This document shows, one piece after another, positions 31,351 to 51,352 of a stretch of DNA of 64,000 nt (its first letter is position 1; the number at the start of each line of letters is the position of its first letter). A program made the translations under genes and the position numbers. Under the pieces are notes generated by a model. The model ran no database searches and was not told the DNA's origin. It saw only the letters and a program-made list of their open reading frames with translations. Origin of the DNA: a bacterium (lineage in GTDB: Bacteria; Margulisbacteria; Marinamargulisbacteria; SXXA01); the NCBI GenBank assembly GCA_010028705.1, contig RHAI01000001.1:3104-67103 (forward strand). The letters run 5' to 3'.

Positions 31351-32294
31351 CACGCTCCCCGATCATTGCCGTGTCATCGGTCAGTTTTTCCAAAAATGCG
31401 ACGTTACGCTCTGAATTGAGTGCCCAATTTCCAAATTCCCGATTTAATGAATCAGGACGCAATTTATCGACAGACGAATTAATTGCATTTTTTAGTCACG
31501 CGGATGGCATTTTAGTCGGAACCGAGCCAATTAACCGTGAGGTCATTAATGGATCCCCCTCTGTGTCCTGCCTCGCTAAATATGGCGTGGGTCTCGACAA
31601 TGTGGACATCGACTATTGTCGCCAGGCCAATGTTGCCATTGGGTGGACAGGTGGCGTTAATAAATATGCCGTTGCTGAGCTAGTGATCGGATACATGATC
31701 ACCTTATCCCGAAACATGTTTATGAGTGCGAATCAATTGAAGGCAGGGGGGTGGCACAAATTCGGGGGTCGGCAATTATCGGGACTCACCATTGGGATCA
31801 TAGGCCTGGGTCATATCGGTCAAGAATTGGTACGGTTGCTCCAGCCATTTGAGCCCACTATTCTGGCAAACGACATCGCGGATCGCTCGGAATTTGCGAC
31901 AACACACGGCGTTCAGCTCGTGGGATTGAGCACACTGGTATCGCGTTCCGACATCATAACGATACACACCCCATTAACGGCGTTAACTCATCACTTAATT
32001 AACGCCGGGACATTGTCGCTCATGAAGCCAACGGCCATCGTAATCAATACCGCCCGGGGTCCAGTGATTGATCAGGCGGCCCTCACCGAATCCCTCGCGA
32101 ACGGGGTAATTGGTGCGGCAGCGCTCGATGTCTACGCGGTTGAACCAGAAACAGATGCAAGACTATTAGCCCTTCCGAATCTATTCTGCACGCCCCATAT
32201 CGGGGGCAACTCAATCGAGGCGGTGCTCGCAATGGGACGAGAAGCGATTCATCACCTCGTTCAGTTTTTTACAGCACCCAACCTAATGGCATGA
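31347..32294 (+). CDS. D-isomer-specific 2-hydroxyacid dehydrogenase (PGDH/SerA-like)
   Basis: A 315 aa ORF with the NAD-binding motif [12 protein letters not shown] and a catalytic region (ARGPVID...HIGGNS). It overlaps msrB by 4 nt. Confidence 0.75.
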
Positions 32295-32367
32295 CCGCCC
32301 AGTCACGTATTGTAATGGGTGGGGGCCACTCGGGATGGGTACGAATTAATTCGGATAGCAGGATCCT

Positions 32368-34122
32368 ATGAAATTAGCATCGGGCATGCTGATGTGGAGC
32401 GCCATTATTTACACTCAGATGCGCCCAAGTCAGACTCTACCGATCGGGCACCCGAACAATGCCCCACTCCGCCCCATCCAATCGGACGATTCACTTCCAA
32501 CGCGGCGATTGGCCACAACGACCCTCGATGCACCGTCGGGGACCGCCCACTCGATCGATGAACTCAGTCGGACCCTGTTAGAAATCGTCGATATTGGGGT
32601 TCCATTAACCACCCCAATGTGGGGGGGATGGACCCCCGGAACCCAGGCGGCTGTCGACGGGGACATCCAGCAACTCCACCGCCTAAATCGGCTCGACCCC
32701 GCATCACTCAAGGAATCCGATGTGGAGGGATGGACCCCCGCCACTCGCGCGGCGTCTGTCGGGCAGGTTGAATCGATAATGGCTCTCTTTGAGATTGACC
32801 CACTATTGCTTCGGCAGGTGGATAATTTTCTAGCGACGCCCGCCACACGGGCCGCACATTATGGCCAGACAACCATTTTAGAGACATTGCATCGATTGGA
32901 TCCCGAGTTATTATCGCAAATCGACGCCGGAGGTTGGACTCCCGCCACACGAGCCGTCTTCGACAAGCAGCATGGTGTATTAGAAACGCTATTCCGTTTG
33001 AACCGGACGATATTAACACAACCAAACGGCAAAGGGTGGACTCCCGCCACCTTAGCGGTAGCGTTTGATAAAGGAGATATTGTTAACACATTGTATCGAC
33101 TCGACCCCCAAGCGGTGACGTGTAGCGACGCCAATGGATGGACTCCCGCGATGTGGGCGGCCAACGACGGCAAAGTTGCCGGACTGCGACGACTTCATTC
33201 GCTGCACCCCGAAACCATTACTCGGCCAGATTCCTATGGTCGAACCACGGCAACCCGGGCCGCCGCCAATGGGCATTCCCACGTACTTCAGCTACTTTTC
33301 GAACTCGCACCTGAGATAGTTCGACATCCCGACGTGACCGGTTGGTCCGTCGGGACCATCGCGATACGCCACAACCAAGGCGAGATACTCCAGACACTCC
33401 ACGCCCTAGATCCACGCTTATTATCCCAACCCGATGGCCATCAATTCACGCCACTCACGTTTGCAATTCACGAAAAAAAAATGGAAATGATTACTACCCT
33501 CTACCAGATTAACCCGTCACTGATTGATACGCTAACCCCCGACGGATTGACACCCGTGTCCTTCGATTCACTGCTGGAGTTAATGAACACGACCCATCGA
33601 GGTTGGGGTATCGATCCATGGCTGGCGATATCGCCACTCCTATTAATTAGTCAGGTTACGGTTGGAGTTCTGTCACTGATTTTCATCATCCAGCGTCTCG
33701 GCCGAGGGGGAATCCCAAACGATGCTCAGACGAATCTGTCCTCCGAACCAATCGGCAACGAGTTAGTCGCGGATCAAAGTCATCAGCTGATGACCCAACT
33801 TGCCGAACTTTCGGATAAGGAGTCACTTAATGTCGGCCACGGAATGGTCGCCCGTCGAAACGGAAGCCTCTATGAACTCGACGATGCCACGGGCACCTAT
33901 CAACCCGTAGCGTGCCTTATCTCGCACGACGAACTCACGCTACACACCGCGGTCTTAATTCATCGACCAACGCATCCCAATCACCGGCTCCATCTCGTGA
34001 CGGCCGAAAATCCGTATCAATTTGCTAAGTGTGCGCTCTGTAAGGAACCCACGGCAACTGAGAACTGGCTCCATTACTATTGGGCCACCCGGATCCAAAA
34101 TTCGATTGCCGCGCCCGACTAA
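32368..34122 (+). CDS. Membrane protein with ~10 tandem 34-residue ankyrin-like 'GWTPATxAA' repeats, one TM helix and a conserved Cys/His C-terminal domain (paralog A)
   Basis: A 584 aa ORF. The repeats follow DxxGWTPATRAAxxGxxxxLxxLxxLDPxLLxQxD. A TM helix (ISPLLLISQVTVGVLSLIFII) is followed by a C-terminal domain with HGMVARRNGSLY and CALCKEPTATENWLHYYWATR. This domain is shared with the gene at 37891. Confidence 0.6.
   Translation: MKLASGMLMWSAIIYTQMRPSQTLPIGHPNNAPLRPIQSDDSLPTRRLATTTLDAPSGTAHSIDELSRTLLEIVDIGVPLTTPMWGGWTPGTQAAVDGDIQQLHRLNRLDPASLKESDVEGWTPATRAASVGQVESIMALFEIDPLLLRQVDNFLATPATRAAHYGQTTILETLHRLDPELLSQIDAGGWTPATRAVFDKQHGVLETLFRLNRTILTQPNGKGWTPATLAVAFDKGDIVNTLYRLDPQAVTCSDANGWTPAMWAANDGKVAGLRRLHSLHPETITRPDSYGRTTATRAAANGHSHVLQLLFELAPEIVRHPDVTGWSVGTIAIRHNQGEILQTLHALDPRLLSQPDGHQFTPLTFAIHEKKMEMITTLYQINPSLIDTLTPDGLTPVSFDSLLELMNTTHRGWGIDPWLAISPLLLISQVTVGVLSLIFIIQRLGRGGIPNDAQTNLSSEPIGNELVADQSHQLMTQLAELSDKESLNVGHGMVARRNGSLYELDDATGTYQPVACLISHDELTLHTAVLIHRPTHPNHRLHLVTAENPYQFAKCALCKEPTATENWLHYYWATRIQNSIAAPD
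32650..33630 (+). repeat. In-frame tandem repeats (~102 bp period) encoding the GWTPAT ankyrin-like modules of paralog A
   Basis: The motif recurs at ggatggactcccgccac about every 102 nt. Antisense ORFs with VAGV.P peptides in the ORF track are artefacts of this periodicity. Boundaries are approximate. Confidence 0.6.
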
Positions 34123-34199
34123 CACTCAACGATACGCCAGGGGAATACGACTTCATCCATTGGCCCATCGGAAGTCTGCAGCCCCGTTAGTGCCCCACC

Positions 34200-36761
34200 C
34201 TACACCGTAATCCGCCCCTCACGATAGTCTACAGTGATTGAGGATTGGGGGATTGTTCCCGCCAACAATTTGGCCGCTAACGGATTTTCGATGGTTTGGA
34301 CGATTAATCGCTTCATTGGTCGAGCCCCAAATTCTGGATCAAAACCTGCCAGTGCGAGATACTGAATGGCCGACGGTGTCACGTGAAACGAATACCCTCT
34401 GGCGGCCAACCGATCGGACAAATGCGCCAATTGAATATGTACTATTTTTTCCAAATCGTCGTTGGAAAGCGGATGAAACGACACGATATCATCAATTCGA
34501 TTTAAAAATTCGGGTCGAAACACTTGTTTGAGCGCTGACATCAACTGATGATCGCGTCGATCGGGATCCGACTCGGCGTGTAGAATATGACTGCCAATGT
34601 TCGACGTCATAATTACGATAGTATGTTTAAAATCGACGGTGCGACCCTGACTATCGGTTAAGCGACCGTCGTCCAATACCTGAAGTAATAGGTTGATGAC
34701 ATCCGGATGCGCCTTTTCGATTTCGTCTAGCAACACCACACTGTAAGGACGACGTCGGACAGCCTCGGATAGCTGACCTCCCTCGCCATAGCCCACATAC
34801 CCCGGCGGCGCACCAATTAATCGAGATACCGAATGCTTTTCCATGTATTCCGACATATCGATTCGCACCAGGTGTTTATCGTTATCAAACAAAAACTCAG
34901 CTAAGGCTTTCGCCGTTTCAGTTTTCCCAACGCCGGTCGGGCCAAGAAACAAAAAACTTCCCATCGGTCGATTGGGATCCGCTAATCCCGATCGCGACCG
35001 TCGAATGGCATGGGCAACACGATCAATCGCCTCCAACTGCCCCACCACTCGCTGCGTGAGTCGCTCCTCCGCATGAATCAATTTTTCCTTCTCGGTTTCA
35101 ATCAGTCGAGAGACCGGAATGCCGGTCCATTTGGCTACGATCTCCGCGATATCTTCGTCTTCAACTTGTTCGTTTAACATTTTCTGTGTCGACTGAACCT
35201 CCGCCAGCTGCTGCGTCAACGAATCAATCATTTGGGTCAACTCGGGGACTAACTTAAATCGAATTTCAGATACTTTCTCGTAATTTCCCAATCGCTCTTC
35301 CATTTGTTCTGTGTATCGCGCATCTTCCAACTGTTTTTTGGCCGTTCGAATCGATTGAATCACCGCTTTTTCGCTCATCCAATGGGCCGTCAGCGTCGCG
35401 GATTTTTCTTTTAATTCGGCCAACTGTGCATCAATTTTAGCCAAGGTACTGTTTCCGAGCTCGTCGCCGTCCCGTTTCACCGCCTGACGTTCAATTTCAA
35501 GTTGGAGTATTTTACGGGTAACTTCGTCAATTTCTTGAGGCATGGAATCAATTTCGATGCGCAATTTGGAGGCGGCTTCATCGAGCAAATCAATGGCTTT
35601 GTCTGGCAAAAAACGGTCGCTAATGTACCGATTTGAAAGATTGGCCGCCGCAATCACCGCGTCGTCATGTATTTTTACCCCGTGATGGATTTCGTATTTT
35701 TCCTTAAGCCCTCGCAAAATTGCGATGGTATCTTCAACACTCGGCTCTCCCACATAGGTCTGTTGAAACCGACGTTCCAGGGCCGGGTCTTTTTCAATGT
35801 GGGACCGATATTCATCCAGGGTCGTAGCACCGATGCAACGGAGCTCACCCCGAGCCAGTGCCGGTTTAAGCATATTGGCCGCATCAACGGCCCCCTCAGC
35901 CCCCCCCGCGCCGACCAAGGTGTGGAGTTCATCAATAAACAAGATGACGTCATCTTTCCCCTGCACTTCCGTCAGCAATCCCTTAAGCCGCTCTTCAAAC
36001 TCGCCCCGATATTTGGCACCTGCAATCAGCGCACCCATGTCCAACGACAGGACCCGCTTGCCACGTAATAGTTCGGGAATATCGCCCGACACAATGCGTT
36101 GGGCCAACCCTTCGACAATCGCCGTTTTACCCACTCCCGGTTCTCCGATAAGTACAGGATTGTTTTTTGTGCGGCGGCATAACACTTGAATAACGCGACG
36201 AATCTCATCATCACGGCCAATCACAGGATCCAACTTTCCCTGAGCGGCCCGGTCGACCAAATCAATGGTAAATTTTTTAGACGCATTGAACCGGGCATCG
36301 GGATCCGGACCATCGACTCGCATCGACCCGCGAATCTGCGTTAAGGATTCTTTAATCGCCCGGGGAGAGGCCCCCGCATCCGACAATAACCGCCCCGCCG
36401 CAGACGGATGATCGGCAACCGCCACCAGCAAATGATCGCAACTGACATATTCATCACCCATCGACGACGCGGTGGTTTTAGCCAGTTGCATGATGGTTGT
36501 GAGATGAGAAGATAGGTAAGGAGTATGGCCCCCAGTGACTTTGGGTAATCGACTAATCGCGTCCATCGACAATTTTAAGACGTAATCGGGTGACACCCCA
36601 GTTTTCTGGACCAATTCCGTTGCTAATGACGAACGATCCGATACCAATCCGGCCAATAAATGCACATCCGTTAGTTCTTGATTGGTATGGGCGATGGCCA
36701 ATTCCTGAGCGTTTTGAATGGCTTCCTGCGCCTTAATCGTCAGTTTATCGTTACCGATCAT
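34200..36761 (-). CDS. clpB: ATP-dependent chaperone/disaggregase ClpB
   Basis: An 853 aa ORF with a Clp N-domain, two AAA+ modules ([15 protein letters not shown]; [15 protein letters not shown]) and a long middle-domain coiled coil. Confidence 0.9.
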
Positions 36762-37111
36762 GGATACACCTCATGTTTAAATTGAAAAGTCGCTAAAACG
36801 ACAGGAGTTACGCGGCACATTGGGTGCCAATCAAAACGGCCAAAAATCGTTCCATAATACTACACTTGGAGGGTGATGCGATATGAATCTGTCGGCATTC
36901 AGTACATCGTGAATCGCCCGTCGTATCGTTCGGGATATCGGTAGGCGTTAGGGCCTTCTGACGAATCGCCGAGTTGTATGTCCGCATACCGTCCTCGACA
37001 ACCGCCCGTACGACTCCGGTCGTCGGTGTCACCCTGCCGTGCGATTGACTCCGTCAATCCGCCCCTACGTGTAATCGTGCACTGGGGATCGCGATGCGCG
37101 GCACCCGACCA

Positions 37112-37675
37112 TTACTTCGGACCCCATTTTTTTTGAATAAATCCGGCGCGACCGGACCCTACTTTGTATCGCTCATAATGGATGGGTTGTTTGCGGTAAT
37201 ACTGTTGATGATAATCTTCAGCTGGATAAAATGTCGCGGCCGGTTTAATGGTAACAACAATCGGTTTTTCAAATTTTCGACTGGCCGCCAACGCTTCTTT
37301 CGACGCAGCCGCCGCGAGACGTTGCTCAGGGCTGTGATAAAAAATGACAGGTCGATATTGAGGGCCTAAATCGGCAAACTGCCCATACTGATCCGTCGGA
37401 TCAACATTTTTCCAGTACACATCTAATAACGCGTTATAGCTTACCCTCGACGGGTCATATTCAACCTGAATTACTTCATAATGTCCGGTTCGACCGGTAC
37501 TGACTTGGTCGTATGTTGGTCGGATTACACTACCGCCCATATACCCTACCGTTGTGTTTACAACGCCTGGAATATGATCATACGGTGACTGCATACACCA
37601 AAAACATCCCCCCGCAAACGTCGCAATCAATAAGGCTTTCACGTACCCATTTAATCGGATGTTCTCGTGAAACAC
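37112..37675 (-). CDS. msrA: Peptide-methionine (S)-S-oxide reductase MsrA
   Basis: A 187 aa ORF with the MsrA active-site motif GGCFWCMQ near the N-terminus, a conserved GYxGG and recycling-Cys context. Confidence 0.85.
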   Translation of the reverse strand: MFHENIRLNGYVKALLIATFAGGCFWCMQSPYDHIPGVVNTTVGYMGGSVIRPTYDQVSTGRTGHYEVIQVEYDPSRVSYNALLDVYWKNVDPTDQYGQFADLGPQYRPVIFYHSPEQRLAAAASKEALAASRKFEKPIVVTIKPAATFYPAEDYHQQYYRKQPIHYERYKVGSGRAGFIQKKWGPK

Positions 37676-37890: not shown

Positions 37891-40185
37891 ATGAATATAT
37901 TTAACGGCGCCAACCCGATGATTACCCAAGTAGCTTACAATACAACATCCCCCCGACGGACGGATAATTCACTCCCCGTATGCCCGATTCCTACCCCAGT
38001 TAGTCGCCATCAAGACCCCATCGCCATGGACTCATGGACACAACTCGAGCAACTTACTCGATCAAATATTCGCTGGTCACTCCCTCCGGATCAATCCGGC
38101 AATACCGCCCGGCCGATTTTTCCAACACTTGCGCCTGATTTAATAAGTCAATTAGTTAACGGCGACACAACAGCTGCCACAATGGCCGCAAAATACGGCC
38201 GATCCGATGATCTCATCAGGCTGTATCACCTCGACCCCAGAGGCTTAAATCAGACTGACAAAAAGGGATTGACTCCCGCCACAATGGCCGCCAAATCGGG
38301 CCAATCAGATGTACTTAAAACAATTCATCTACTTGACCCTAAATTGCTCACCCAATTTGATAATTACGGCCGAACTCCCGCCACAATAGCCGCCATCTCA
38401 GGACAATCAGACGTACTTAAAATGCTCTACTCAATAAATCCGAAACTACTCACCCAATTTGATAAAAACGGTTGGACTCCGGCTACATTAGCCGCCAAAT
38501 TAGGCCAATCGGAAATAGTTCTCACACTTCACCAACTCAATCCCAATTTGCTCAAACAACACAATAAGAATGGAAAAAACGCCGCGACAGAAGCCGCTTA
38601 CGAAGGAAATTTGGATGTCATACAGACGATTTCCAAAATCGACTCAAATTTGTTACGAATCTTTGACAAAAAAGGGCGGACTCCCGCCACAATGGCGGCT
38701 CAAGAAGGTCATCCAGACATCCTAATTGCACTTCATCACCTGGATCCGGATTTACTAAAACAATCGACCCAATTTGGGCATACCCCAGCAACCACGGCTG
38801 CCAGAAAAGGAAAATTAGGCATACTCAATACTCTAAACCAACTCGATAGTCGTCTGTTACATCAATACAACAAGCACGGAGATACGCCAGCAACCACGGC
38901 CGCCGGAGAAGGAAAAGCAAACGTCATCACGACCCTCCACACACTCAATCCCCAATTGATCACCCAATGTAATAAACACGGCTGGACGCCAGCCACCCTT
39001 GCTGCGAAAACAGGAAACGCCAACGTCATTAAAATCATCCACCAACTCAATCCTGAACAATTATCTCAAGTCGACAGTAACGGGCGAAACGCCGCATCAA
39101 CAGCTAGTGAGGCCGTTAGAGATGACGTATTAAATGCACTCCACACACTCAATCCCCAATTGCTCTCACAGTGGGATAATCACGGCGCAACGTCTGCGAC
39201 AAGAGCTGCCGAATTGGGGCGTTCATTCGCAATTATCACCCTGCATAAACTGAATCCAGAATACCTGACCCAATTCGACAAAAATGGCCGAACACCTGCC
39301 ACTGTCGCCGCCAAATCAAAAAAATTAGGCATCATCAAAACTCTCTACCGACTTAACAAAGACTTGCTCAACCAATCGGATGATAGCGGACATAATCCAG
39401 CCACTGTCGCCGCCAAATCAGGCCAATTAGACGTCATCTCCACTATTTACGAGCTCAATCCAGAAGTACTCATACAATCGGATCGTAGCGGCCATACACC
39501 AGCCACTATCGCCGCGACATTAGGCAACTTAGACGTCCTCATCACACTCCACAACCTCGATCCTGCGTTACTCACCCAACTCGACAACAACGGCTGGACT
39601 CCCGCCACGAAAGCCGCGTCCAAAGGCAACTTAGACGTCCTCAAAACTCTGTATCAACTGGATCCCAAACTATTGCTACAACTCTGGCTCCTGATCGGGA
39701 GCATAAGCGTTCTGGGGATCGCCACCCTCGGAGGGATTTGGTATTTATTACCGTTGGAACAACTCCACCCCAATGCACTCGGTCAAGCTATTCTTGAACC
39801 ACCTATCCCCATCATGGCGCCCCAGGTCGCCGAAGTTCCAATGATCGGACTCGAGGTGGTCACCGCCCAACGCAATCAACTGATGGCTCAACTGAGTCAA
39901 CTTGGGGAGAATGATCACCTCGATGTCGGCCATGGGATGGTCGCCCGTCGAGACGGAAGCCTTTATGATCAGAGCGAAAGTAGCATGCTTAATCTCTTAC
40001 AACGACCTGATGCTCGATACCGCGACCCTACTTCATCGACCACGGAATCTCCATCAACGCCTCCATCTTGTGACGTCAGAATATCCGTATCAATGGGCGA
40101 CGTGTGCGCTCTGTCAGGAACCCACGGCACCAGAGACCTGGCTCCATTACTATTGGGCCACTCGGAACATGGCCCCGCCAAGTGA
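37891..40185 (+). CDS. Paralog B of the GWTPAT ankyrin-like repeat membrane protein (~15 repeats); the C-terminal conserved domain is frameshifted
   Basis: A 764 aa ORF with 34-aa repeats (e.g. DKKGLTPATMAAKSGQSDVLKTIHLLDPKLLTQF), a TM helix (LWLLIGSISVLGIATLGGIWYLL) and then HGMVARRDGSLY. After that the annotated frame encodes a non-conserved tail. The conserved C-terminus CALCQEPTAPETWLHYYWATR is encoded in another frame (39902-40192). Confidence 0.55.
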   Translation: MNIFNGANPMITQVAYNTTSPRRTDNSLPVCPIPTPVSRHQDPIAMDSWTQLEQLTRSNIRWSLPPDQSGNTARPIFPTLAPDLISQLVNGDTTAATMAAKYGRSDDLIRLYHLDPRGLNQTDKKGLTPATMAAKSGQSDVLKTIHLLDPKLLTQFDNYGRTPATIAAISGQSDVLKMLYSINPKLLTQFDKNGWTPATLAAKLGQSEIVLTLHQLNPNLLKQHNKNGKNAATEAAYEGNLDVIQTISKIDSNLLRIFDKKGRTPATMAAQEGHPDILIALHHLDPDLLKQSTQFGHTPATTAARKGKLGILNTLNQLDSRLLHQYNKHGDTPATTAAGEGKANVITTLHTLNPQLITQCNKHGWTPATLAAKTGNANVIKIIHQLNPEQLSQVDSNGRNAASTASEAVRDDVLNALHTLNPQLLSQWDNHGATSATRAAELGRSFAIITLHKLNPEYLTQFDKNGRTPATVAAKSKKLGIIKTLYRLNKDLLNQSDDSGHNPATVAAKSGQLDVISTIYELNPEVLIQSDRSGHTPATIAATLGNLDVLITLHNLDPALLTQLDNNGWTPATKAASKGNLDVLKTLYQLDPKLLLQLWLLIGSISVLGIATLGGIWYLLPLEQLHPNALGQAILEPPIPIMAPQVAEVPMIGLEVVTAQRNQLMAQLSQLGENDHLDVGHGMVARRDGSLYDQSESSMLNLLQRPDARYRDPTSSTTESPSTPPSCDVRISVSMGDVCALSGTHGTRDLAPLLLGHSEHGPAK
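38180..39660 (+). repeat. In-frame tandem ~102-bp repeats encoding the ankyrin-like modules of paralog B
   Basis: Adjacent units are near-identical, e.g. ...caatcagatgtacttaaaacaattcat... / ...caatcagacgtacttaaaatgctctac..., and ctcacccaatttgataa recurs. Boundaries are approximate. Confidence 0.6.
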
Positions 40186-40192
40186 AACTTAA
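39902..40192 (+). pseudogene. Out-of-frame segment encoding the conserved C-terminal domain of paralog B (frameshift relative to 37891-40185)
   Basis: The 96-aa frame-2 ORF (...VACLISYNDLMLDTATLLHRPRNLHQRLHLVTSEYPYQWATCALCQEPTAPETWLHYYWATR...) aligns residue-for-residue with the C-terminus of the 32368 protein. A DNA alignment shows that paralog B has 20 nt fewer than paralog A just after ggaagcctttatga (~39970-39985). Confidence 0.6.
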
Positions 40193-40436
40193 ACTAGAAC
40201 GGGTCATCACGACGCCCCCCACCCGTGTGGGACAAAGGCTCACGTACCGTCACGACGTCGGCATCAGTTTCCCTTAACCTATGATTTACTGCTAAAATCC
40301 CTCCACTTTTGAAAATTAAGCCATCTCATCCTGATCGACCAGCTGATTCGGAACCACCACCGATTCCAGGTCAGCGACTCAGTCCATCCCATAGTCCTAC
40401 ACTCTTTATCCATCGAAAGGACCCCGCCCAGACCCT

Positions 40437-41753
40437 ATGATCGCATCTCTAGTTCATATTGATTCTCTGTCGATCGTCATCATGATTCTGGTGGGATTTA
40501 TCGGATCCATTGTCCTGGCGTTCGCCACACGTTACCTAAGATACGACCGGCATTACGCCCGATTTCTAGCGTCACTGAGCGGTCTACTGGTGTCTGTTAT
40601 CATCTTAAGCGTTTCCGATCATGTTGTGCTTTTTGGCATAACGTGGACACTGGTTAATGGAATACTGATTCGGCTAATGACCCATTTTCGCCAGTGGCCA
40701 CAGGCCATCGAATCGGGACGCCAGGCCGTTTATCGCTTGGGAATAGGCACGGCGGCACTATATTTGGGGCTCATCCTAGTGACACACTCGGCACACAGCG
40801 TTCGAATTTCGACCATCATCCACACGGTGCCGGTCACCCCAATGTCGACCATTGGGATCGGATGTATTGTCATTGCTGCATTGGCACAATCCGCTATTAT
40901 TCCGTTTCATAAATGGCTACTGAGCTCCCTTAATTCCCCAACCCCCGTTTCGGCACTCATGCACGCCGGAATCATTAACGGCGGGGGGGTTCTACTGACA
41001 CGATTTGGGCCGTTGGTCATTCAACATCCCACGATTCTTCATTTTTTGGTCATCATCGGGCTACTGACCGCCGCGTTTGGAACGGCATTTAAATTAGTGC
41101 AATCGGACATCAAGCGCATGTTAGCGTGTTCCACGATGGGGCAAATGGGGTTCATGATACTCCAATGTGGACTGGGATTATTTCCCGCTGCTATTTCGCA
41201 CATGGTGTGGCACGGCATGTTTAAAGCCTATTTTTTCCTGGATTCTCCGAGCGCCGCGCAGTACCCCAAACTTAGCAAGCCCGAAACCCCGCATCCGTTG
41301 TCAGCCATCGCGTCAATTGTGGGTGGTATGGCGGCGGCATCCATTGCCATGATGATACTCCATATTTCAGTGGCCCCGATCAATTCTTCGGTGGTCATCC
41401 CCATTGTTATCGGAATCGCAGGCACCCAAGGAATGATGACATTTATTCAACGAAACGGTGTATCTCTGGCCCCGATTGGGTTCGGACTAGCAGTGGTGAT
41501 GGGCGCCATGTACGGATTCAGTGTCCGGATCGTCGAAACGACGCTAAGCCCCCTTCACCTGTTGGCACCCCAACCCTTTCATTGGGTTCATGGCATGGCC
41601 GCCAGCGTATTAATTGGATTATGGGCAAGTATCGCCTTGAGCCCATTGATTACGAAACGAAAATTACCCGGGCTATACGTTTGGATACTGAACCTCAGTC
41701 AGCCTCACCCCGCCACGATTACCTCCGACAGAAACATGTACCGCTATGATTAA
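40437..41753 (+). CDS. dabB: Proton-conducting membrane transporter subunit (NuoL/MrpA-like); DabB-like partner of a DUF2309 protein
   Basis: A 438 aa polytopic membrane protein with ~12 hydrophobic helices and a NuoL-family-like core (HAGIINGGGVLLTRFGPL; MGQMGFMILQCGLG). It lies immediately upstream of a DUF2309-type gene and overlaps it by 8 nt. Confidence 0.6.
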   Translation: MIASLVHIDSLSIVIMILVGFIGSIVLAFATRYLRYDRHYARFLASLSGLLVSVIILSVSDHVVLFGITWTLVNGILIRLMTHFRQWPQAIESGRQAVYRLGIGTAALYLGLILVTHSAHSVRISTIIHTVPVTPMSTIGIGCIVIAALAQSAIIPFHKWLLSSLNSPTPVSALMHAGIINGGGVLLTRFGPLVIQHPTILHFLVIIGLLTAAFGTAFKLVQSDIKRMLACSTMGQMGFMILQCGLGLFPAAISHMVWHGMFKAYFFLDSPSAAQYPKLSKPETPHPLSAIASIVGGMAAASIAMMILHISVAPINSSVVIPIVIGIAGTQGMMTFIQRNGVSLAPIGFGLAVVMGAMYGFSVRIVETTLSPLHLLAPQPFHWVHGMAASVLIGLWASIALSPLITKRKLPGLYVWILNLSQPHPATITSDRNMYRYD

Positions 41754-43932
41754 CTCCTCGGCCACTATTCGTGATATCATCGAGGCCGCTTGGCGGCCCA
41801 TCTCACCGTTTTGGCCACTGCAATCGATTGTATCGGTCAACCCACTTCAGGGTTTGGAATATTTGCCATTTGATCAGGCCATCGTTCACGCCCAGCATTT
41901 ATGGGGAAGGACCCCATTACCTGACACGATCTCCACTGCGAATCGGATCTCGATAAAATGGTGTCAATCGCTCATGGATTTGGGCCAGGCTCGAATTGGA
42001 ATTGTATCCAAACGGCGCACACTATTTGACACCTGGAAATCACTGGCCGTATGGGATACGGAACTCACCCGACCATGCCCCACATTACGATCATGGTTAG
42101 ACAAAGATCCCGTTGATTTGATCGCGCATCACATCAATGAACTGGGGATAACCCTCGATCAGGGAGCCGAGTTACTGACACTCACGCTCACATCGCTACC
42201 GGGATGGGCATCGCATGTTCGGTATCTCGACCAATGGGCATCGGGTCACCCGACGGATATCCAAACCGATTTCCTCGCAATTCGGTTAAGTATTATTCGG
42301 GCCGTTGGTCAGGACTCCGAAATCGTGCGGTGGGTCACCACGCCGCCAGTGCCGAATCCCGATTTTATAAATTATCAGGCCATCCGCGACGCCGAATCTG
42401 ACTATATTCCATCGCTAATCCAACGCCTGGAATCGGCGATAAACCACCCATCGCCCAGTGAATCACCCGACCTACAAATGGCATTCTGTATTGATGTTCG
42501 CTCAGAACCTATTCGCCGAGCGATCGAGTCAGCGGGGCCGTATCAGACGTTTGGGATCGCCGGTTTTTTTAATATTCCGATTCAAATTTCCGACCATTTG
42601 TCACTCGAGACCCACCCGTCATGCCCAGTCATAATGCGCCCGGAATATCGCATCCACGATCGACGCCCCGCATCAACCTGGCTGGCCCATAGTTTAAAAT
42701 CATGGCATATGATTCAACGCGGAATTCGGTATTTGTATCGAACACTCAAATATACATTTTCCGCTCCCTTTGCATTAGTCGAAATAGTCGGTGGAAGTTT
42801 AGGGATCGCTATGGCGATACGAACATTATTTCCCGCCGTGGCCCACATGGCGACCCCTCAAAAAATACACGCTACCCCCCGATTGCCATCAGTATTGGAT
42901 GCATTAACAGCGATTCCGTTAGAGGATCAAATTCGCTACACCGAAGGTGCGTTGAGGACGATGGGATTAACGGACAACTTTGCCCCAATCATACTTATTT
43001 GCGGCCATGGCAGTTCGACTCAGAACAATGCCTTCGCCACAGCCCTCGATTGTGGCGCATGTGGCGGGCAACCCGGCGACCGAAATGCCCGTGTTCTTGC
43101 ACAACTCCTCAATTCCCCCGATGTACGACAGGCGCTTCATTCACGGGATATCTCGATCCCTGACAGCACATTATTTATGGCGGCACTGCACAACACAACA
43201 ACTGATCACATCTCATTATTCGACGACAGCCTCCTACCTCCAAACGGAATCCAGCAGGCTATTCTTGAACGATTTAAGTCCCATTTACCCGCCATACAAT
43301 CCATATGCGCCCATCGACGACTGACTCAACTGGGGCACCCCACCGACGTCCGCCTTGCAACACGTTTGGCGATTAAACTCAGTGTGGACTGGGCGCAAAT
43401 CAGACCGGAATGGGGGTTATCCGGAAATGCCTCTATTATTGTCGGCGATCGTGAGCTCACGCGAGATCTCGACCTTGGCGGCCGGTCATTTTTGCAGTCC
43501 TACAATTGGCACTCTGACCTCGATGGCCGCATATTAGTGAGCCTTCTGGATTCGGCTGTTGTTGTCGCCCACTGGATCAACAGTCAGTACCTTTTTTCAA
43601 CCATCAATCCAACCGCCTTTGGAAGTGGGAGTAAAGTGACCCACAACATCACAGGAAAACACAGCGTCATGCAAGGCAACGCCAGTGACATTATGACTGG
43701 ATTGCCAATGCAATCGTTATATCGGCGACCGGGAGAACCGTACCATGCGCCCGTCCGACTAACGATCGGAATTATGGCGCCCATCGATCGAGTCATCGGG
43801 TCGATAAAACAATCCCCGACGCCGCTTCAATTGATTATTAATCAATGGGCCCATTTGGTGGTGATTGATCCGATCACCCGGCGAGTCAGTCGGATTACCC
43901 ACACCGAACTATTGGCGCACTGTTCCGCCTAG
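41746..43932 (+). CDS. dabA: DUF2309-family protein, DabA-like (putative inorganic-carbon accumulation complex subunit)
   Basis: A 728 aa ORF with the motif FCIDVRSEP. A His and a Cys lie 15 residues apart (ICGHGSSTQNNAFATALDCGACGG). This matches the Cys-x-Asp ... His ... Cys beta-carbonic-anhydrase-like site described for DabA. Confidence 0.65.
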   Translation: MINSSATIRDIIEAAWRPISPFWPLQSIVSVNPLQGLEYLPFDQAIVHAQHLWGRTPLPDTISTANRISIKWCQSLMDLGQARIGIVSKRRTLFDTWKSLAVWDTELTRPCPTLRSWLDKDPVDLIAHHINELGITLDQGAELLTLTLTSLPGWASHVRYLDQWASGHPTDIQTDFLAIRLSIIRAVGQDSEIVRWVTTPPVPNPDFINYQAIRDAESDYIPSLIQRLESAINHPSPSESPDLQMAFCIDVRSEPIRRAIESAGPYQTFGIAGFFNIPIQISDHLSLETHPSCPVIMRPEYRIHDRRPASTWLAHSLKSWHMIQRGIRYLYRTLKYTFSAPFALVEIVGGSLGIAMAIRTLFPAVAHMATPQKIHATPRLPSVLDALTAIPLEDQIRYTEGALRTMGLTDNFAPIILICGHGSSTQNNAFATALDCGACGGQPGDRNARVLAQLLNSPDVRQALHSRDISIPDSTLFMAALHNTTTDHISLFDDSLLPPNGIQQAILERFKSHLPAIQSICAHRRLTQLGHPTDVRLATRLAIKLSVDWAQIRPEWGLSGNASIIVGDRELTRDLDLGGRSFLQSYNWHSDLDGRILVSLLDSAVVVAHWINSQYLFSTINPTAFGSGSKVTHNITGKHSVMQGNASDIMTGLPMQSLYRRPGEPYHAPVRLTIGIMAPIDRVIGSIKQSPTPLQLIINQWAHLVVIDPITRRVSRITHTELLAHCSA

Positions 43933-44436
43933 AGACGGAGCGACGGATACGCGAATATTTTCGGCCAATTGGGTGAGCGCCGTGATATCGCCCATTGGTC
44001 CACTCCCCGAACAAATCCACCCCTCGTATCGTTCAAACCAAAACTGTTTGCCACTGAGTTGCTGGCGCCAACTGCCATTTTCTAAATGTTCAGTCCCATG
44101 CATGGGCACCAATTTAATGTGAGCGTGATCAACCCCGGTACCCTCCATAATCAATCCAACGCGGCCCACGTCGTCAAAATAATTTTCAAGAATACCCGCG
44201 ACCGTTTTCGAGGCCAAAATAAACCGTTGGAGCACCTCATCGGGCATCTTCAACACATCGCTACCAAAATGGATTTTGGGGACAACACACGAAAATCCTT
44301 CGGTATTCGGATCGATTGCCAACCACGCCATAAAGTCGTCGTCACTCCAAAAAATTCCTGGAGTGTTTATTTTCCCAGAAATAATGTCACAAAAAATGCA
44401 TCGATTATCAGCGGTGTGCGACGGGTAATTAGCCAT
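43909..44436 (-). CDS. HIT-family (histidine triad) nucleotide hydrolase/transferase
   Basis: Start set at MANYPSHT. The longer ORF to 44532 would run through tRNA-Tyr. The protein has a Cys-rich N-terminus (CIFCDII) and the histidine triad DHAHIKLVPMH. Confidence 0.75.
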   Translation of the reverse strand: MANYPSHTADNRCIFCDIISGKINTPGIFWSDDDFMAWLAIDPNTEGFSCVVPKIHFGSDVLKMPDEVLQRFILASKTVAGILENYFDDVGRVGLIMEGTGVDHAHIKLVPMHGTEHLENGSWRQQLSGKQFWFERYEGWICSGSGPMGDITALTQLAENIRVSVAPSLGGTVRQ

Positions 44437-44446
44437 AAATAGTTGG

Positions 44447-44530
44447 TGGAGGGAGCTGGATTTGAACCAACGTAGAGCTAAGCTCGGCAGATTTACAGTC
44501 TGCTGCGATTGACCACTCCGCCATCCCTCC
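44447..44530 (-). tRNA. tRNA-Tyr (anticodon GTA), long variable arm
   Basis: The reverse complement reads GGAGGGATGGCGGAGTGGTCAATCGCAGCAGACTGTAAATCTGCCGAGCTTAGCTCTACGTTGGTTCAAATCCAGCTCCCTCCA. The anticodon loop is CTGTAAA and the T-arm is GGTTCAAATCC. Confidence 0.85.
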
Positions 44531-44621
44531 AAAGGAAAGCTTTGAAAAAGCAGAGTATTCTAGGATATAGCTTGCGAGAAACCTATGTCAAATCAAGCCC
44601 ATTCACGCAAAGCGAATTGGG

Positions 44622-45470
44622 ATGGTAATATCTGATCCAATGAAAATTCGTCTTTCAAAACGAGGGGTGTGGCTACTAGCGCTTGTCATTATTGCGTGCA
44701 TCATGGGCCCATTACGAGGCGTAATCTCAAATACCCCTGGGGTAGGGGTCCCCTTCTTGTACATCTACTACTGGACTGACAATCTAAAATTTTGGGGAAC
44801 AAAATCGTTGTCACCATCGCTTCGTGGGCTTGAAATACCGACCGTGGCAGGGCGTCCGATTGGGACCGATCCAGTGGGATCTCATTTTCGCTCACCCAAT
44901 AGCTCCTTTGTTCTGACCTCCAATCCTACCCCAATTTACACCCGCCCCAGCCAATCCAGTCGACGAATTCGAATGATACAGCCCGGCTATCGTGTGCGAG
45001 TGGTTTATCAAAAAGATGATGTATCTGTTTCAGACTCGAATGGTCGTGGATTATGGGTTTTTCTGACCATGGAAGATGGCAAACGTCCCATCGGATGGGC
45101 GATCAATACGACACTAGGGTATCAGGATAAATTTGCACCGCCCGCGCACTGGAACATCCCTTATTTTTCTCTGTGTATCGGTGAATATTGCGCCAGCTTC
45201 AAAGTCAAACCCAGCGGTCGATTTTATGAGACCTGGGATTCGATTGGTAAAGGAATAGAGATGAGAGGGAAAAATACCGGTCAGATTTTCGAATACCAGT
45301 CGTTAATATGGGCGAAACAAGACGATCCCGAGGATTATGATGAGCTCATTATTAAAGACAAGGCGAAAGGAATTCGCCATGAAGATAAGTACCGTGATGA
45401 ACCAATCAAGGTGACTCGGTCATATATAAAATCCATTCGATCGTCTCGCGACTACGTATTAAAAAATTAA
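44622..45470 (+). CDS. Hypothetical membrane-anchored protein (N-terminal TM; SH3-like middle region)
   Basis: A 282 aa ORF with an N-terminal hydrophobic helix (VWLLALVIIACIMGPL). No recognised catalytic motif was found. The call is tentative. Confidence 0.35.
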   Translation: MVISDPMKIRLSKRGVWLLALVIIACIMGPLRGVISNTPGVGVPFLYIYYWTDNLKFWGTKSLSPSLRGLEIPTVAGRPIGTDPVGSHFRSPNSSFVLTSNPTPIYTRPSQSSRRIRMIQPGYRVRVVYQKDDVSVSDSNGRGLWVFLTMEDGKRPIGWAINTTLGYQDKFAPPAHWNIPYFSLCIGEYCASFKVKPSGRFYETWDSIGKGIEMRGKNTGQIFEYQSLIWAKQDDPEDYDELIIKDKAKGIRHEDKYRDEPIKVTRSYIKSIRSSRDYVLKN

Positions 45471-47067
<1,597 letters not shown>

Positions 47068-47078
47068 TATTCACCACT

Positions 47079-47474
47079 ATGGATGATCAAAAAATAGGTT
47101 CGGTTGTTGAAGGGGAAGTCACACATATCACCACGTTTGGGGCCTTCGTCAAACTTGAGGATGGAGAAGAAGGGCTCGTTCATATTTCAGAAATTGCCAA
47201 CGAATATGTCACTGACATATCAAATTTTGTAAATGTTGGGGATAAAGTGTCCGTTAAGGTCATGGCCAGAAATCAAAAAAATAAGCTTGAGCTTTCGATG
47301 AAACGTTCGAAGCCTGATTTTGAAGAAGAAGCCGGCTTGTTTATGGCTAAAAAAACAAAAAATGCGGCGTTCGAAGATCGAATCACATCGTTTTTAAAGC
47401 GATCAGAAGAGAAGCAAATTGATATTCGACGCAATCTCAAGAGTAAACAAGGTATTACAAAAAAACGTCGATAA
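47079..47474 (+). CDS. S1 RNA-binding domain protein (YabR/GSP13-like)
   Basis: Start chosen at MDDQKIG. The S1 fold reads GSVVEGEVTHITTFGAFVKLEDGEEGLVHISEIANEYVTDISNFVNVGDKVSVKVMA, followed by a basic tail. Confidence 0.7.
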   Translation: MDDQKIGSVVEGEVTHITTFGAFVKLEDGEEGLVHISEIANEYVTDISNFVNVGDKVSVKVMARNQKNKLELSMKRSKPDFEEEAGLFMAKKTKNAAFEDRITSFLKRSEEKQIDIRRNLKSKQGITKKRR

Positions 47475-48543
47475 GCGACGTTTTTTACTGTTGATCTCAG
47501 TATGGTGTCTGACATTAGCCACACCTGTAGTCGCGGATTTATCCGAGGTACTGTTTACAACGCCAATTGTTTCTGGCAAATTCTACGACACGTCATTTAT
47601 CGGGATAACATCCCAAAATACCCTCACAAAGTATTCCATTACGGGACAAAAATTCTGGACAGTATCCATCGAACATCCCCCGCTCCAGCAATTGGATATC
47701 CTATTTAACCGAGTGATCATGATCGATGGCCAAGGATCGATCGAATGCCGTGATGGAAACTTTGGAATCCGACTTTGGGGAATATCGTCCGAAAAATATC
47801 GCCGATTATTTCTTCAGTATCCGATATTTTTTGCGCTGCGCGACAATGGTGCTATCGATGCGTTTGATTTCTCGAGCGGGTGTCTCTTATACGGGGTCCG
47901 GTACCCGGAGTCGTGCCGCATTTTTGATAAAATTCCAAATGGGGGCGGACTCTTTGCTCAAAACGGCACGAATGTCAGCTATATTTCTCCGGACTTGTCG
48001 GATGAAACAATCATCACTCATGAGATGAGGCCCACCGGGGAGGAGCTGGATATCACGCGTGATCGGTTGGCATATCTAGACAACACTACGATTCGTGTGT
48101 CTTCAGGGGATTCAACGATTGACACGTACGTTTTAGGCTCATCGCCCAGTCAAATACTCATTCCTAAGAACCGATTTGTGAGTATAAACTACTCCGAATC
48201 AGACCAAAATCAATGGATAATTCACTACCCATTGCTAGTCGAAATCAACCTTCCATATGGCCTGATTCGTGCTTTTAACGTCACAACGGATGACACATAT
48301 CTGGAATGGAAAGAGTTGGACCCCGACAAAAAATGGAATTCCGTTTGGTGGCAAAACGGATTAGTGGGACTCGTGAACTCTGATAACGTACTCACGATTT
48401 GGGACTACGACACCAACCGAATTCTAGGCTCTGTCCCGTGGGACGCCAAAAAAGGACACCCCATTGCGATCAATTACACACGCGATATTATTTCGATCGC
48501 CACATCAGAAAAAATGTACGTTGCGGCAGTGAGACGAAATTGA
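47419..48543 (+). CDS. Hypothetical secreted protein (possibly beta-propeller-like)
   Basis: A 374 aa ORF with a signal-like N-terminus (RRFLLLISVWCLTLATPVVA). No recognised motif was found. Confidence 0.35.
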   Translation: MIFDAISRVNKVLQKNVDKRRFLLLISVWCLTLATPVVADLSEVLFTTPIVSGKFYDTSFIGITSQNTLTKYSITGQKFWTVSIEHPPLQQLDILFNRVIMIDGQGSIECRDGNFGIRLWGISSEKYRRLFLQYPIFFALRDNGAIDAFDFSSGCLLYGVRYPESCRIFDKIPNGGGLFAQNGTNVSYISPDLSDETIITHEMRPTGEELDITRDRLAYLDNTTIRVSSGDSTIDTYVLGSSPSQILIPKNRFVSINYSESDQNQWIIHYPLLVEINLPYGLIRAFNVTTDDTYLEWKELDPDKKWNSVWWQNGLVGLVNSDNVLTIWDYDTNRILGSVPWDAKKGHPIAINYTRDIISIATSEKMYVAAVRRN

Positions 48544-50225
48544 CACTCCGAGTGATTAAAGACACTTATACCATTCAATCCGAACTTTTCAGGGACTCGA
48601 TATCCCGTTCTTTCGCAGGAAACTCGCCAACAGGGGACGTCATTATCACGCAATACGATCCCAAATTTACGGGATCCGGCACAGTCAATGCGTTAATCAC
48701 CGTGGGAAATCGGTGGTTAAATGCCTCGGGTGACTACGGCCCGCGATTAATCGATTTTCATTATGACGGCCAATCCTTTTATGCCATATATTCAGTCCAG
48801 AAACCGTGTCGGCCATTAGTCACTGTATTACGGGATTCCCCATCGATATCAATGCAGATGTTAGATCAATGGACCAAAGAGTTGCTCGATCAACTCTGTA
48901 TCCTTGAATCACTGGGTGTATATCATGGGGGAATAAGTCTCCATTCGATAGTGATTGACGGAGAGGGAAAGCTGTCGACAATCCATGCAGGGCTTCATGC
49001 TGAAATCGTACGCCTCAATCTTTCCGAGATACGCCAAATCGAATCCGCTATTTTTCTGACTGAATCCCAATTAAATGGCCACCCATCAGTGATTCAAGAT
49101 GACATTCATGCGGTTGGAGTTCTCACTTACCTGTTCTTTTCAAATACATGGCCCTACGAATTTACCGGGGAGCTGGCACGAGCACGCGCATTAATCGGGG
49201 TTCGGCATCGTCCCTTTTCACCGTCAAACGAACTCATTCCTTCCAATTACCCAATGATTATTGACTGCGCATTGATGTCTAAATCGGGCGACGGATACCC
49301 CTCTATGCAAGAACTGAGATCGGCATTTTTACCAACTAAAGCTCCACAACCGACTCCCAATTCCCCAATTATTGATCCTATCAGTACCGAGATTGCCCGG
49401 GGGCGCGATTCAGATGAACGCCAACCGCTTGATTCCCGAATCCTCGATGTATTTCATCGCAAAAAACGCATTATAACCACCGTGATCATTGGGTTAGTGT
49501 TAGCATTTACCACAAATTACCTGTACGTATCGTATGTCACCTCGATTCCTGAAATTACCGTTCCAAATATTCAAGGCGAATCACTGACCTCAGGTATATC
49601 GCAGTTGGAAGCGGTCCATCTCCAAGGAAAAGTGGCCGCCTATCGACCCGACTATACTGTGCCAGAAGGTACCATTTTAGAAACTCGCCCACCCGGAGGG
49701 CGCCAAGTTAAGCAAAACCGAATCATTCTATTAACTGTTTCAAAATATACTTCCGAATTAAAAATGCCCGATTTAATTGGGCGAACAATTACTGACGCGC
49801 AACAACTTCTGCCAAACCCAAAAACAAAAATTAAAATTATTGGAGATGCGTTTTCGATGTCGGCAACAGCCGGTGAAATCATGTCACAAATCCCAACTCC
49901 GGGAGTAACTATTAACGCCAATTCAGCCGTTCAAGTTACGATCAGTAAGGGGTTTCCGGTCCAGATAGACATCCATCCAGGCGGAAAAAAATATATTGCG
50001 ACGATAATTATTGGGGTTCCACCCGATTGGCCCGAGCAAGAAATTAGAGTAACAGTAAAGCATGGCGGCACAAGCCAACAGCTACTATCGAAGACAGTAT
50101 CCCCAGGAGATACGACTCAGACATCCGCCCCCCTCGATCTGTCCGACACATTGTCCGTCAGCTACAATGGAAAATCAGCTATCTCACAGTCTGTAAAAGA
50201 CCTACTGGCAGAAGAGGCGGAATGA
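48540..50225 (+). CDS. Membrane-anchored protein-kinase-like (probable pseudokinase) with two extracytoplasmic PASTA domains
   Basis: The N-terminal ~330 aa have a kinase-like layout with degenerate motifs. The Gly loop reads FTGSGTVNALITV with no obvious VAIK Lys. The catalytic loop reads YHGGISLHSIVID instead of HRDLKPxN. No DFG is present. A TM helix (IITTVIIGLVLAFTTNYLYV) follows. Two PASTA modules follow (VPNIQGESLTSGISQLEAVHLQG...ILLTVSK; MPDLIGRTITDAQQLL...VQVTISKG). The start is inferred as TTG at 48540, overlapping the upstream stop. The ORF track starts at 48399. Confidence 0.55.
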   Translation: MTLRVIKDTYTIQSELFRDSISRSFAGNSPTGDVIITQYDPKFTGSGTVNALITVGNRWLNASGDYGPRLIDFHYDGQSFYAIYSVQKPCRPLVTVLRDSPSISMQMLDQWTKELLDQLCILESLGVYHGGISLHSIVIDGEGKLSTIHAGLHAEIVRLNLSEIRQIESAIFLTESQLNGHPSVIQDDIHAVGVLTYLFFSNTWPYEFTGELARARALIGVRHRPFSPSNELIPSNYPMIIDCALMSKSGDGYPSMQELRSAFLPTKAPQPTPNSPIIDPISTEIARGRDSDERQPLDSRILDVFHRKKRIITTVIIGLVLAFTTNYLYVSYVTSIPEITVPNIQGESLTSGISQLEAVHLQGKVAAYRPDYTVPEGTILETRPPGGRQVKQNRIILLTVSKYTSELKMPDLIGRTITDAQQLLPNPKTKIKIIGDAFSMSATAGEIMSQIPTPGVTINANSAVQVTISKGFPVQIDIHPGGKKYIATIIIGVPPDWPEQEIRVTVKHGGTSQQLLSKTVSPGDTTQTSAPLDLSDTLSVSYNGKSAISQSVKDLLAEEAE

Positions 50226-51352
50226 TTACCGAATTTGAGACGCAAACCCTCAAACATTTATTAGCCATATCGCGACGAAATGCATGGAAAACTCGTCCAA
50301 ATCCTGCGGCTGTTGCCGCCGTGGTTAACGATGGCGTTATATTAGGGATTGGACACCATCGGGGAAAAGGATCTCCACACGCAGAAGTCGATATACTCCA
50401 TCGATTGGGTGATCGCGCCAAGGATTCCACCATTATTGTGACGCTTGAACCCTGTACTCACTGGGGAGACAATCCCCCGTGCACATCAGCCATCATTGCC
50501 AGTGGCATTAAGCGAGTGATATTTCCCATAATTGACCCCAATCCCCTGGTCAGAAAAAATTCCGCCACCGAATTACTTCAAGCCCATGGCATCGAGGTGA
50601 TTTCGGGTGTGTTGGTGGAAGAAGCCGCTGAAGCCAATATCGAATTCTTTACCCACATTAGTCAACAACGCCCGTACGTGACCGCAAAAATTGCGTGCTC
50701 GCTCGATGGAAAAATGGGATTGGATAACGGGGAAAGTTTTCCCATTTCAAGCGCGACATCGCTTCATAAGGTACACCAACTTCGAAATAAAATGGACGCT
50801 ATAATGGTGGGAGTCAACACCATTATTAACGATAATCCAAGATTAACAATTCGAGGGATTAGATCCCCCAATCGACTAATAAAGATCATCGTCGACTCCC
50901 ATGCCAGAGTGCCTTTAAACGCTCGTTGCTTTGAAAATACAGACCCGGCCGATGTATTTGTTATTACAGGGAACGATTGCCCTATAGACGCCATAAATGC
51001 CCTCAAATCCAAATCAACCATAATTGAGCTTCCCTTTGCGTCGTTAAAAGGCCGCTTTGACGCCGTAGTAAAGGCATTGTACCCGTATTCAATTTATCAT
51101 GTGCTTCTCGAGGGCGGCCCCACCTTATTGTCCGATGCGATAGATCACCAACTCGTCGACCGCCTAATCGTCATCCAGTCTCCAATACTTATCGGAGGTA
51201 CATCAAAATATTCATTTTACTCGGGGAACTCGACCCAAACCCTGAATAGTGCCCTACAATTTCAAACAATCAGACGTCAATCAATTGGCCCCGATATCTG
51301 GATTGAGGGAATGATTCACCGTCCGACATCCAATCTAACTAAAGGAATTTAA
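50222..51352 (+). CDS. ribD: Bifunctional riboflavin biosynthesis protein RibD (deaminase/reductase)
   Basis: A 376 aa ORF with the CDA zinc motifs HAEVDIL and LEPCTHWGDNPPC, plus a C-terminal RibG-type reductase domain. Confidence 0.85.
   Translation: MITEFETQTLKHLLAISRRNAWKTRPNPAAVAAVVNDGVILGIGHHRGKGSPHAEVDILHRLGDRAKDSTIIVTLEPCTHWGDNPPCTSAIIASGIKRVIFPIIDPNPLVRKNSATELLQAHGIEVISGVLVEEAAEANIEFFTHISQQRPYVTAKIACSLDGKMGLDNGESFPISSATSLHKVHQLRNKMDAIMVGVNTIINDNPRLTIRGIRSPNRLIKIIVDSHARVPLNARCFENTDPADVFVITGNDCPIDAINALKSKSTIIELPFASLKGRFDAVVKALYPYSIYHVLLEGGPTLLSDAIDHQLVDRLIVIQSPILIGGTSKYSFYSGNSTQTLNSALQFQTIRRQSIGPDIWIEGMIHRPTSNLTKGI

Follow-up and report, generated by a model that had tools for sequence, protein, structure and literature searches.

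An intact, selected two-gene dabB-dabA operon of the short-DabB clade in a Marinamargulisbacteria contig

We analyzed a 64,000-nucleotide stretch of contig RHAI01000001.1 (GenBank assembly GCA_010028705.1, positions 3,104 to 67,103 of the forward strand; hereafter the window) from a bacterium of the Marinamargulisbacteria, focusing on two overlapping genes at positions 40437-43932 of that stretch. In sequence, the two match the DabB and DabA genes far beyond chance. The pair is an intact, selected two-gene DAB of a clade defined by short DabB proteins, and DAB systems are known to occur widely, also among bacteria without carbon fixation. Its products very probably form a two-subunit DAB complex (DabBA, also MpsAB) that acts as a vectorial carbonic anhydrase. 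Activity, coupling ion, and physiological role are those that we infer from characterised homologues.

In such a complex, the NuoL-like DabB would pass protons along a conserved His/Lys chain, driven by the membrane potential. DabA would sit on the cytoplasmic face of DabB, with a two-helix finger that carries a conserved glutamate inserted into it, and would hold a buried zinc site of the beta-carbonic-anhydrase type (Cys-His-Cys plus an Asp-Arg dyad). In the proposed mechanism, passing protons gate this site and hydration of CO2 that has diffused in runs one way, to bicarbonate, and inorganic carbon would be trapped because the bicarbonate could not leak out.

The dabB-dabA operon

The upstream gene, dabB (40437-41753, forward strand), encodes a predicted NuoL-like proton-conducting membrane subunit of 438 amino acids (aa), which is a short form of the protein. 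The downstream gene, dabA (41746-43932, forward strand), encodes a 728-aa predicted cytoplasmic subunit resembling beta-carbonic anhydrases (PF10070/DUF2309). Coordinates and lengths are exactly as given in the initial annotation, and so is the 8-nt overlap of the dabA start with the dabB stop (41746-41753, forward strand; ATGATTAA, read directly from the sequence), which suggests translational coupling; the junction reads ...TAT GAT TAA / ATG ATT AAC. At 76 of the 80 genome loci retrieved with DabA, dabB is directly upstream of dabA on the same strand, and 44 of 75 related loci have a tight junction (an overlap or a gap of at most 30 nt) by a crude count based on the first ATG.

The 251-nt spacer 5' of dabB (40186-40436, forward strand) is non-coding, has stops in all three frames, and presumably contains the promoter and the 5' untranslated region. 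A promoter and terminator scan gave no more matches, promoter-like ones included, than shuffled sequence did, and an Rfam scan returned only four tRNAs, with no regulatory RNA near the operon. There is no open reading frame (ORF) for a third subunit, DabC, between the ankyrin-repeat gene upstream and dabB, nor on the same strand after dabA, and the motif strictly conserved in DabA1, NNPYESALDCGACGG, reads NNAFATALDCGACGG here. On these sequence grounds, the operon is of the two-gene DAB2/MpsAB type.

At least four independent assemblies contain this locus (99.2-99.98% nucleotide identity), with both ORFs intact and overlapping. Between the window and the two most different strains, dabB has 10 synonymous and 1 non-synonymous differences, dabA has 8 and 6, and seven flanking genes have 13 and 3. 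The total for dabB and dabA (18 synonymous to 7 non-synonymous) indicates purifying selection, which is looser on dabA than on dabB. Relative to L085, one of the assemblies, dabB/dabA have 18 synonymous differences in 3.5 kb, about three times the density of the seven genes downstream (44622-51352; 13 in about 7 kb); recombination or weaker codon constraint could account for this.

DabA retains the zinc site and the finger glutamate

DabA matches the Pfam family PF10070 from profile position 109 to 746 of 747 (E = 2.4e-192; 641.7 bits, cut-off 25). Its best match among solved structures is DabA2 of PDB 9rd0 (E = 2.6e-96), the cryo-EM structure of DAB2 from Halothiobacillus neapolitanus (bioRxiv 10.64898/2026.03.13.711513; Nat Commun 2026, PMC13144422). 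The DabB/DabA-type identity proposed from the letters alone is thus confirmed for this subunit, and the partner gene matches the other chain of the same structure (see below). No match to PF00484, the family of canonical beta-carbonic anhydrases, was found in DabA.

According to the structure papers, DabA2 binds zinc through C351, H524, and C539 next to a D353-R355 dyad, requires E444 in a membrane-inserting "finger" or "elbow", and has a strictly conserved Leu658. Three motifs have been described as DAB-specific: GI(A/G)GFFG, NNxxxxALDCGACGG, and DW(xxx)RPEWGL (bioRxiv 10.64898/2026.05.01.722082). We placed these features with a MAFFT alignment of the window's DabA, 55 short-clade and 66 other DabA sequences, and residues 339-809 of DabA2. 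Every functionally tested residue is kept (C248, D250, R252, H421, C436, E346, and L558).

The FCIDVRSE motif (residues 247-254; 42484-42507, forward strand) comprises the zinc ligand C248, the D250-R252 dyad, and S253, which align to C351, D353, R355, and S356 of DabA2; for the Cys, Asp, and Arg, phmmer and MAFFT agree. These three are identical in all 120 homologues that cover the columns, and S253 is Ala in one. The remaining zinc ligands, H421 and C436, align to H524 and C539, again with both programs, and are located in the NNxxxxALDCGACGG coupling loop (HGSSTQNNAFATALDCGAC; 43006-43062, forward strand), where HGS spans residues 421-423 and DCGAC residues 435-439. The His-to-Cys spacing of 15 residues is that of H524-C539 in H. 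neapolitanus DabA2. The initial annotation had singled out FCIDVRSE and the HGS...(15)...DCGAC pair as a Cys-Asp-His-Cys site like that of carbonic anhydrases, and the alignment finds this site intact (C248, D250, H421, and C436).

The DWAQIRPEWGL motif (43387-43419, forward strand) contains R553, W556, and L558, equivalent to R653, W656, and L658 of DabA2; L558 is the Leu that stands in for the Gln/His of beta-carbonic anhydrases. The other two DAB-specific motifs are present as NNAFATALDCGACGG and as the lid GIAGFFN, in which the change of the last Gly to Asn is unique to this DabA among the sequences aligned. A272, F274, D435, C439, H482, and D487 also match the reference.

The hydrophobic segment of the finger/elbow motif (42763-42819, forward strand) contains E346, and residues 340-358 around it are the sole strongly hydrophobic segment of DabA. 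The structural model has helices at 311-337 and 341-369 in the finger region, with low predicted local distance difference test (pLDDT) scores. Pairwise phmmer alignment left E444 of DabA2 in a gap; we replaced this result with the multiple alignment, in which FALVEIVGGS and FTFVESAGLS correspond and E346 aligns to E444, a column with Glu in 118 of 121 homologues.

DabB is a short form with invariant proton-path residues

DabB matches PF00361 (E = 3.5e-33) and also PF00662. The best PDB match is DabB2 (9rd0_B; E = 7.8e-41, residues 2-379 to chain positions 82-466), ahead of the NdhF and NuoL structures, which score only about 1e-32. An AlphaFold model (pLDDT 88) has about 13 transmembrane (TM) helices, and its top Foldseek matches are E. 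coli NuoL. The central proton-path residues H176, K226, H255, H259, and K263 (40962-41225, forward strand) correspond to H260, K310, H339, H343, and K347 of DabB2, are invariant in all 117 DabB sequences aligned, and include the equivalent of H260, which is essential for DAB function.

Where DabB2 and NuoL have the TM7 lysine (K235 and K229, respectively), DabB has Q151 (codon 40887-40889, forward strand). This position is Gln in all 54 short-clade sequences and K, R, P (Staphylococcus MpsA), or Q in the long forms; judging from this variation, the TM7 lysine does not define the DabB family. The closest 120 DabB homologues are all short (420-472 aa). An N-terminal truncation or frameshift of dabB was considered and ruled out: no remnant of a longer N-terminus exists in the upstream spacer, which has stops in every frame, and all of these homologues are just as short. 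Nor does loss of the TM7 lysine signal inactivity: every clade member sampled has Gln, and MpsA of S. aureus, which is active in experiments (PMC6689103), has Pro. The short DabB and Q151 are therefore not damage.

A divergent member of a clade spread over several phyla

The DabA family comprises 3,117 representatives at 50% clustering, 1,586 of them at an E-value of 1e-30 or better. Only one relative exceeds 50% identity to the window's DabA (P0002, 54%, from a Logan contig with different neighbours), and the rest are at about 40-43%. The short clade, to which the pair belongs, is a single group in a neighbour-joining DabA tree. Its DabB proteins have 420-472 aa and the invariant Gln at TM7, and its DabA proteins have about 745 aa. 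Members come from Bacteroidota, Chlamydiota (Waddliaceae), Rickettsiales, Holospora, Legionellales, and other Proteobacteria, a mixture of phyla that is best explained by horizontal transfer; Simkaniaceae are listed separately among the DAB homologues. Within the clade, the window's DabA and P0002 are on a long branch, and the window locus lacks the LysR-type regulator and the DUF6671 gene found at other clade loci.

Relation to characterised systems

The pair shares with H. neapolitanus DAB2 (PDB 9rd0, 9rd8, 9rd9) the two-gene dabB-dabA operon, the C/H/C zinc site and Asp-Arg dyad, the finger glutamate, the NNxxxxALDCGACGG and DWxxxRPEWGL motifs, the Leu in place of the beta-carbonic-anhydrase Gln/His, and the DabB His/Lys path. 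It differs in that DabA is about 100 residues shorter than DabA2, mainly in the poorly conserved N-terminal domain, DabB has 438 rather than 551 aa, several CO2-tunnel bottleneck residues are changed, and there is no carboxysome context. S. aureus MpsAB is a DAB homologue from a non-autotroph with the same gene order, thought to supply bicarbonate for carboxylases. MpsA likewise lacks the TM7 lysine, but its N-terminus is full-length (ORF of about 500 aa), and MpsB has only 33-34% identity to the window's DabA and is on a different branch of the DabA tree.

The DAB1 systems (DabABC) of Thermocrinis albus and H. neapolitanus share the DabA fold, the zinc site, and the proton path of DabB with the pair, but include the DabC that is missing here. 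The pair is not a member of the cyanobacterial CO2-uptake NDH-1 systems (CupA/CupB, NdhF3/NdhF4), as the NdhF3 model scores 67 against a cut-off of 589 and there is no NDH-1 context, and DabA is not one of the soluble beta-carbonic anhydrases or CsoSCA.

As the window gives no hint of autotrophy, the complex would likely provide bicarbonate for carboxylases at low CO2, replacing or supplementing a soluble carbonic anhydrase, by analogy with the role proposed for DABs in heterotrophs. The initial annotation considered a DAB in a heterotroph-looking genome worth noting. A 2018 report already listed DabA homologues from RuBisCO-free genomes, among them those of the pathogens B. anthracis, V. cholerae, and L. 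pneumophila (bioRxiv 10.1101/476713), and the 2018-2019 reports describe DAB homologues in Bacteroidetes and pathogens (bioRxiv 10.1101/476713; PMC6689103) and complementation of an E. coli carbonic-anhydrase mutant by S. aureus MpsAB (PMC6689103). Given these reports of DABs outside autotrophs, its presence here is expected rather than surprising.

Weighing the alternatives

Several observations weigh against reading the pair as a vectorial carbonic anhydrase of the DAB2 kind. DabB lacks TM1-2 of DabB2, starting at the equivalent of its residue 82, and does not have the 15-TM architecture; the K235/D185 ion pair (TM7 Lys and TM5-6 Asp) is also missing, with Q151 and T105 instead. Among the 170 columns that are at least 95% conserved in the clade, DabA differs from the consensus at 24, where the median member has 2 deviations; the changes include H684Q, I700L, A703S, and P704A, at CO2-tunnel bottleneck residues named by Lo et al., as well as the lid Gly that became Asn. 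The locus has neither the divergent LysR regulator nor the DUF6671 gene, both frequent neighbours of the pair in relatives. The window holds no RuBisCO, carboxysome, or carboxylase gene that could anchor a physiological role (neither these nor a carbonic anhydrase or biotin carboxylase were found among ORFs of at least 150 aa), and our literature search found no activity measurement for any member of the short-DabB clade.

Alanine mutants of the DabB2 ion pair had reduced activity only, and DAB2 still complemented. The tunnel and lid changes touch no residue shown by mutagenesis to be required; the four named substitutions occur in this lineage only, among the sequences compared, and F375I and V696I are further deviations at bottleneck residues. 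Apart from these changes, nothing in this copy suggests that it might behave differently. Absence of TM1-2, the invariant Gln at the TM7 lysine, and absence of the Asp partner are the basis for regarding the short-DabB clade, which horizontal transfer would have spread over Bacteroidota and many intracellular bacteria, as a mechanistically distinct variant, with gating or a coupling ion perhaps unlike those of DAB2 and, in this copy, a remodelled tunnel that may alter substrate access or kinetics. Judged from sequence, we consider this unlikely.

Quite unlikely is that the same complex works as a sodium-coupled bicarbonate transporter and generator of membrane potential, as proposed for S. aureus MpsAB, which has been argued to use sodium. 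It would fit the loss of the lysine common to DabB2 and NuoL, the missing Asp partner, and the variability of the TM7 position across the family, with Pro in Staphylococcus MpsA. Yet the features that define CO2 hydration, namely the zinc site, the Asp-Arg dyad, and the buried-site motifs, are intact throughout, the central His/Lys path of DabB is invariant, DAB2 itself showed no sodium dependence, and nothing in the sequence specifies a sodium site.

We regard as very unlikely that the pair is a horizontally acquired DAB that is drifting, with DabA under relaxed constraint and impaired or changed in substrate access. The window's DabA is the most divergent of the 56 sequences compared: its identity to the clade is about 41%, where the median among clade members is 52%. 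This divergence would agree with drift, as would its 24 deviations, the lineage-specific tunnel changes, the ratio of 6 non-synonymous to 8 synonymous differences in dabA against 3 to 13 in the flanking genes, and the missing LysR and DUF6671 neighbours. However, both ORFs are intact and still overlap in four independent assemblies, each residue known from mutagenesis to matter is retained, and the counts for dabB (10 synonymous to 1 non-synonymous) and for the two genes together (18:7) speak for purifying selection. Copies from endosymbionts (Holospora, Rickettsiales) are similarly divergent (Holospora obtusa has 18 deviations at the same conserved columns, a number also seen in P0002 from the Logan contig), which points to lineage-wide fast evolution, not decay.

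A further possibility, effectively refuted, is that dabB encodes an isolated complex I or Mrp antiporter subunit and lies beside the DUF2309 gene by coincidence. NuoL, NdhF, and MrpA models are among the NCBIfam matches and NuoL chains lead the Foldseek results, but the NCBIfam scores are far under the cut-offs (e.g., 171 against 556 for NuoL) and the best solved match is DabB2. Unlike E. coli NuoL (613 aa), the 438-aa protein has neither the long lateral helix region nor the TM5 glutamate (the position is T71), the window contains no other nuo or mrp genes, and the dabB-dabA order is kept at 76 of 80 loci.

Genomic context of the operon

The initial annotation described the context as "FCB-like". 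We found no evidence for FCB: the nearest named relative of the window's ClpB is from Candidatus Margulisiibacteriota (66% identity), and the next named ones, at about 60%, are from unrelated phyla, although ClpB is only a weak indicator of affiliation here. The FCB impression probably arose from many Bacteroidota homologues at about 42% identity. The Margulisiibacteriota ClpB contig has no synteny with the window, and a ClpB relative at 72% shares only a block of a sigma54 activator, hisD, and valS, with no DAB nearby. Housekeeping and biosynthesis genes in the window include the glycine cleavage P-protein, hisD, aroB, ribD, purC, valS, relA/spoT, enolase, and the replication origin region. 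The neighbouring stress genes that had been pointed out are real (clpB, msrA, msrB), but their linkage to the DAB is conserved neither in the 72% ClpB relative nor at the closest DAB locus. Oxidative-stress genes are scattered over 4537-7738 and 30817-37675 (ahpF-like, ahpC with a divergent LysR regulator, msrB, msrA, and clpB).

Two large ankyrin-repeat proteins are encoded at 32368-34122 and 37891-40185 (both forward strand), flanking clpB and msrA. In the second, about 17 repeats are accompanied by a hydrophobic segment at the C-terminus, and the protein weakly resembles Legionella Dot/Icm Ank effectors by NCBIfam. No other stretch of the region varies as much between strains as the 3' part of this protein's gene (93% identity in L084, >99% elsewhere). 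The ankyrin-repeat genes hint at a host-associated lifestyle. This second gene occupies the place upstream of dabB where 9 of 14 short-clade loci have an immediately adjacent, divergent LysR-type regulator (L003, L007, L009, L011-L015, and L019; at about 7.6-8.5 kb, minus strand).

A gene for a DUF6671 protein (PF20376) was found within about 5 kb of dabB-dabA at 26 of about 80 genome loci, and downstream of the pair at 5 of the 14 short-clade loci; examples are L013 (12139-13020, forward strand), L007 (12163-13038, forward strand), L019, L014, and L003. The product has about 290 aa with four CxxC pairs at its end. Such loci come from many phyla and are found in Rickettsiales, Waddliaceae, Actinobacteria, Bacillota, Mesorhizobium, Methylomonas, and Bdellovibrionales, and one protein (P0084, 1031 aa) is a fusion of DabA with DUF6671. 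DUF6671 has no relative in the PDB and no mention in the literature searched; it may act as an accessory to DABs that has so far gone unnoticed. The window itself contains no DUF6671 gene.

Immediately downstream, a 207-aa HIT-like ORF (43909-44532, minus strand; HIT match below the Pfam cut-off) is convergent with dabA, the two 3' ends overlapping by 24 nt. Its listed start falls within tRNA-Tyr (44444-44530, minus strand), so that translation probably begins at the ATG near 44430 instead. A probable chromosomal replication origin is located at 54000-60100, only about 12-15 kb from the DAB operon, with dnaA (55797-57140), dnaN (57356-58528), recF (58534-59601), and a DciA gene (59582-60061); GC content falls to 39% in this region and GC skew turns from negative to positive at about 58 kb. 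In bacterial origin regions, gyrB often follows recF. Just downstream of the DciA gene in this block is a 637-aa ORF, one of several sizeable ORFs (637, 472, 313, and 374 aa) that have no Pfam match even at E = 0.01 (60656-62569, forward strand; 1165-3553, minus strand; 47419-48543, forward strand). Two adjacent KaiC-like ATPase genes are encoded at 12447-14316 (minus strand), one of them fused to an N-terminal response-regulator receiver domain.

Implications

The NCBI entries for the pair are named "proton-conducting membrane transporter" (NDC82069.1) and "DUF2309 family protein" (NDC82070.1); the correct annotation is dabB/dabA (or mpsA/mpsB). The finding adds one more lineage that does not look autotrophic to a long list of DAB carriers, and matters little beyond annotation. 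What novelty remains is at the level of the clade, which has neither TM1-2 nor the TM7 lysine, and in the divergent tunnel residues of this copy. Two leads for the mechanism of DABs emerge, both concerning the family in general rather than this window: a large natural clade without DabB TM1-2 and the TM7 lysine, and a DUF6671 gene that recurs beside DABs and is sometimes fused to DabA.

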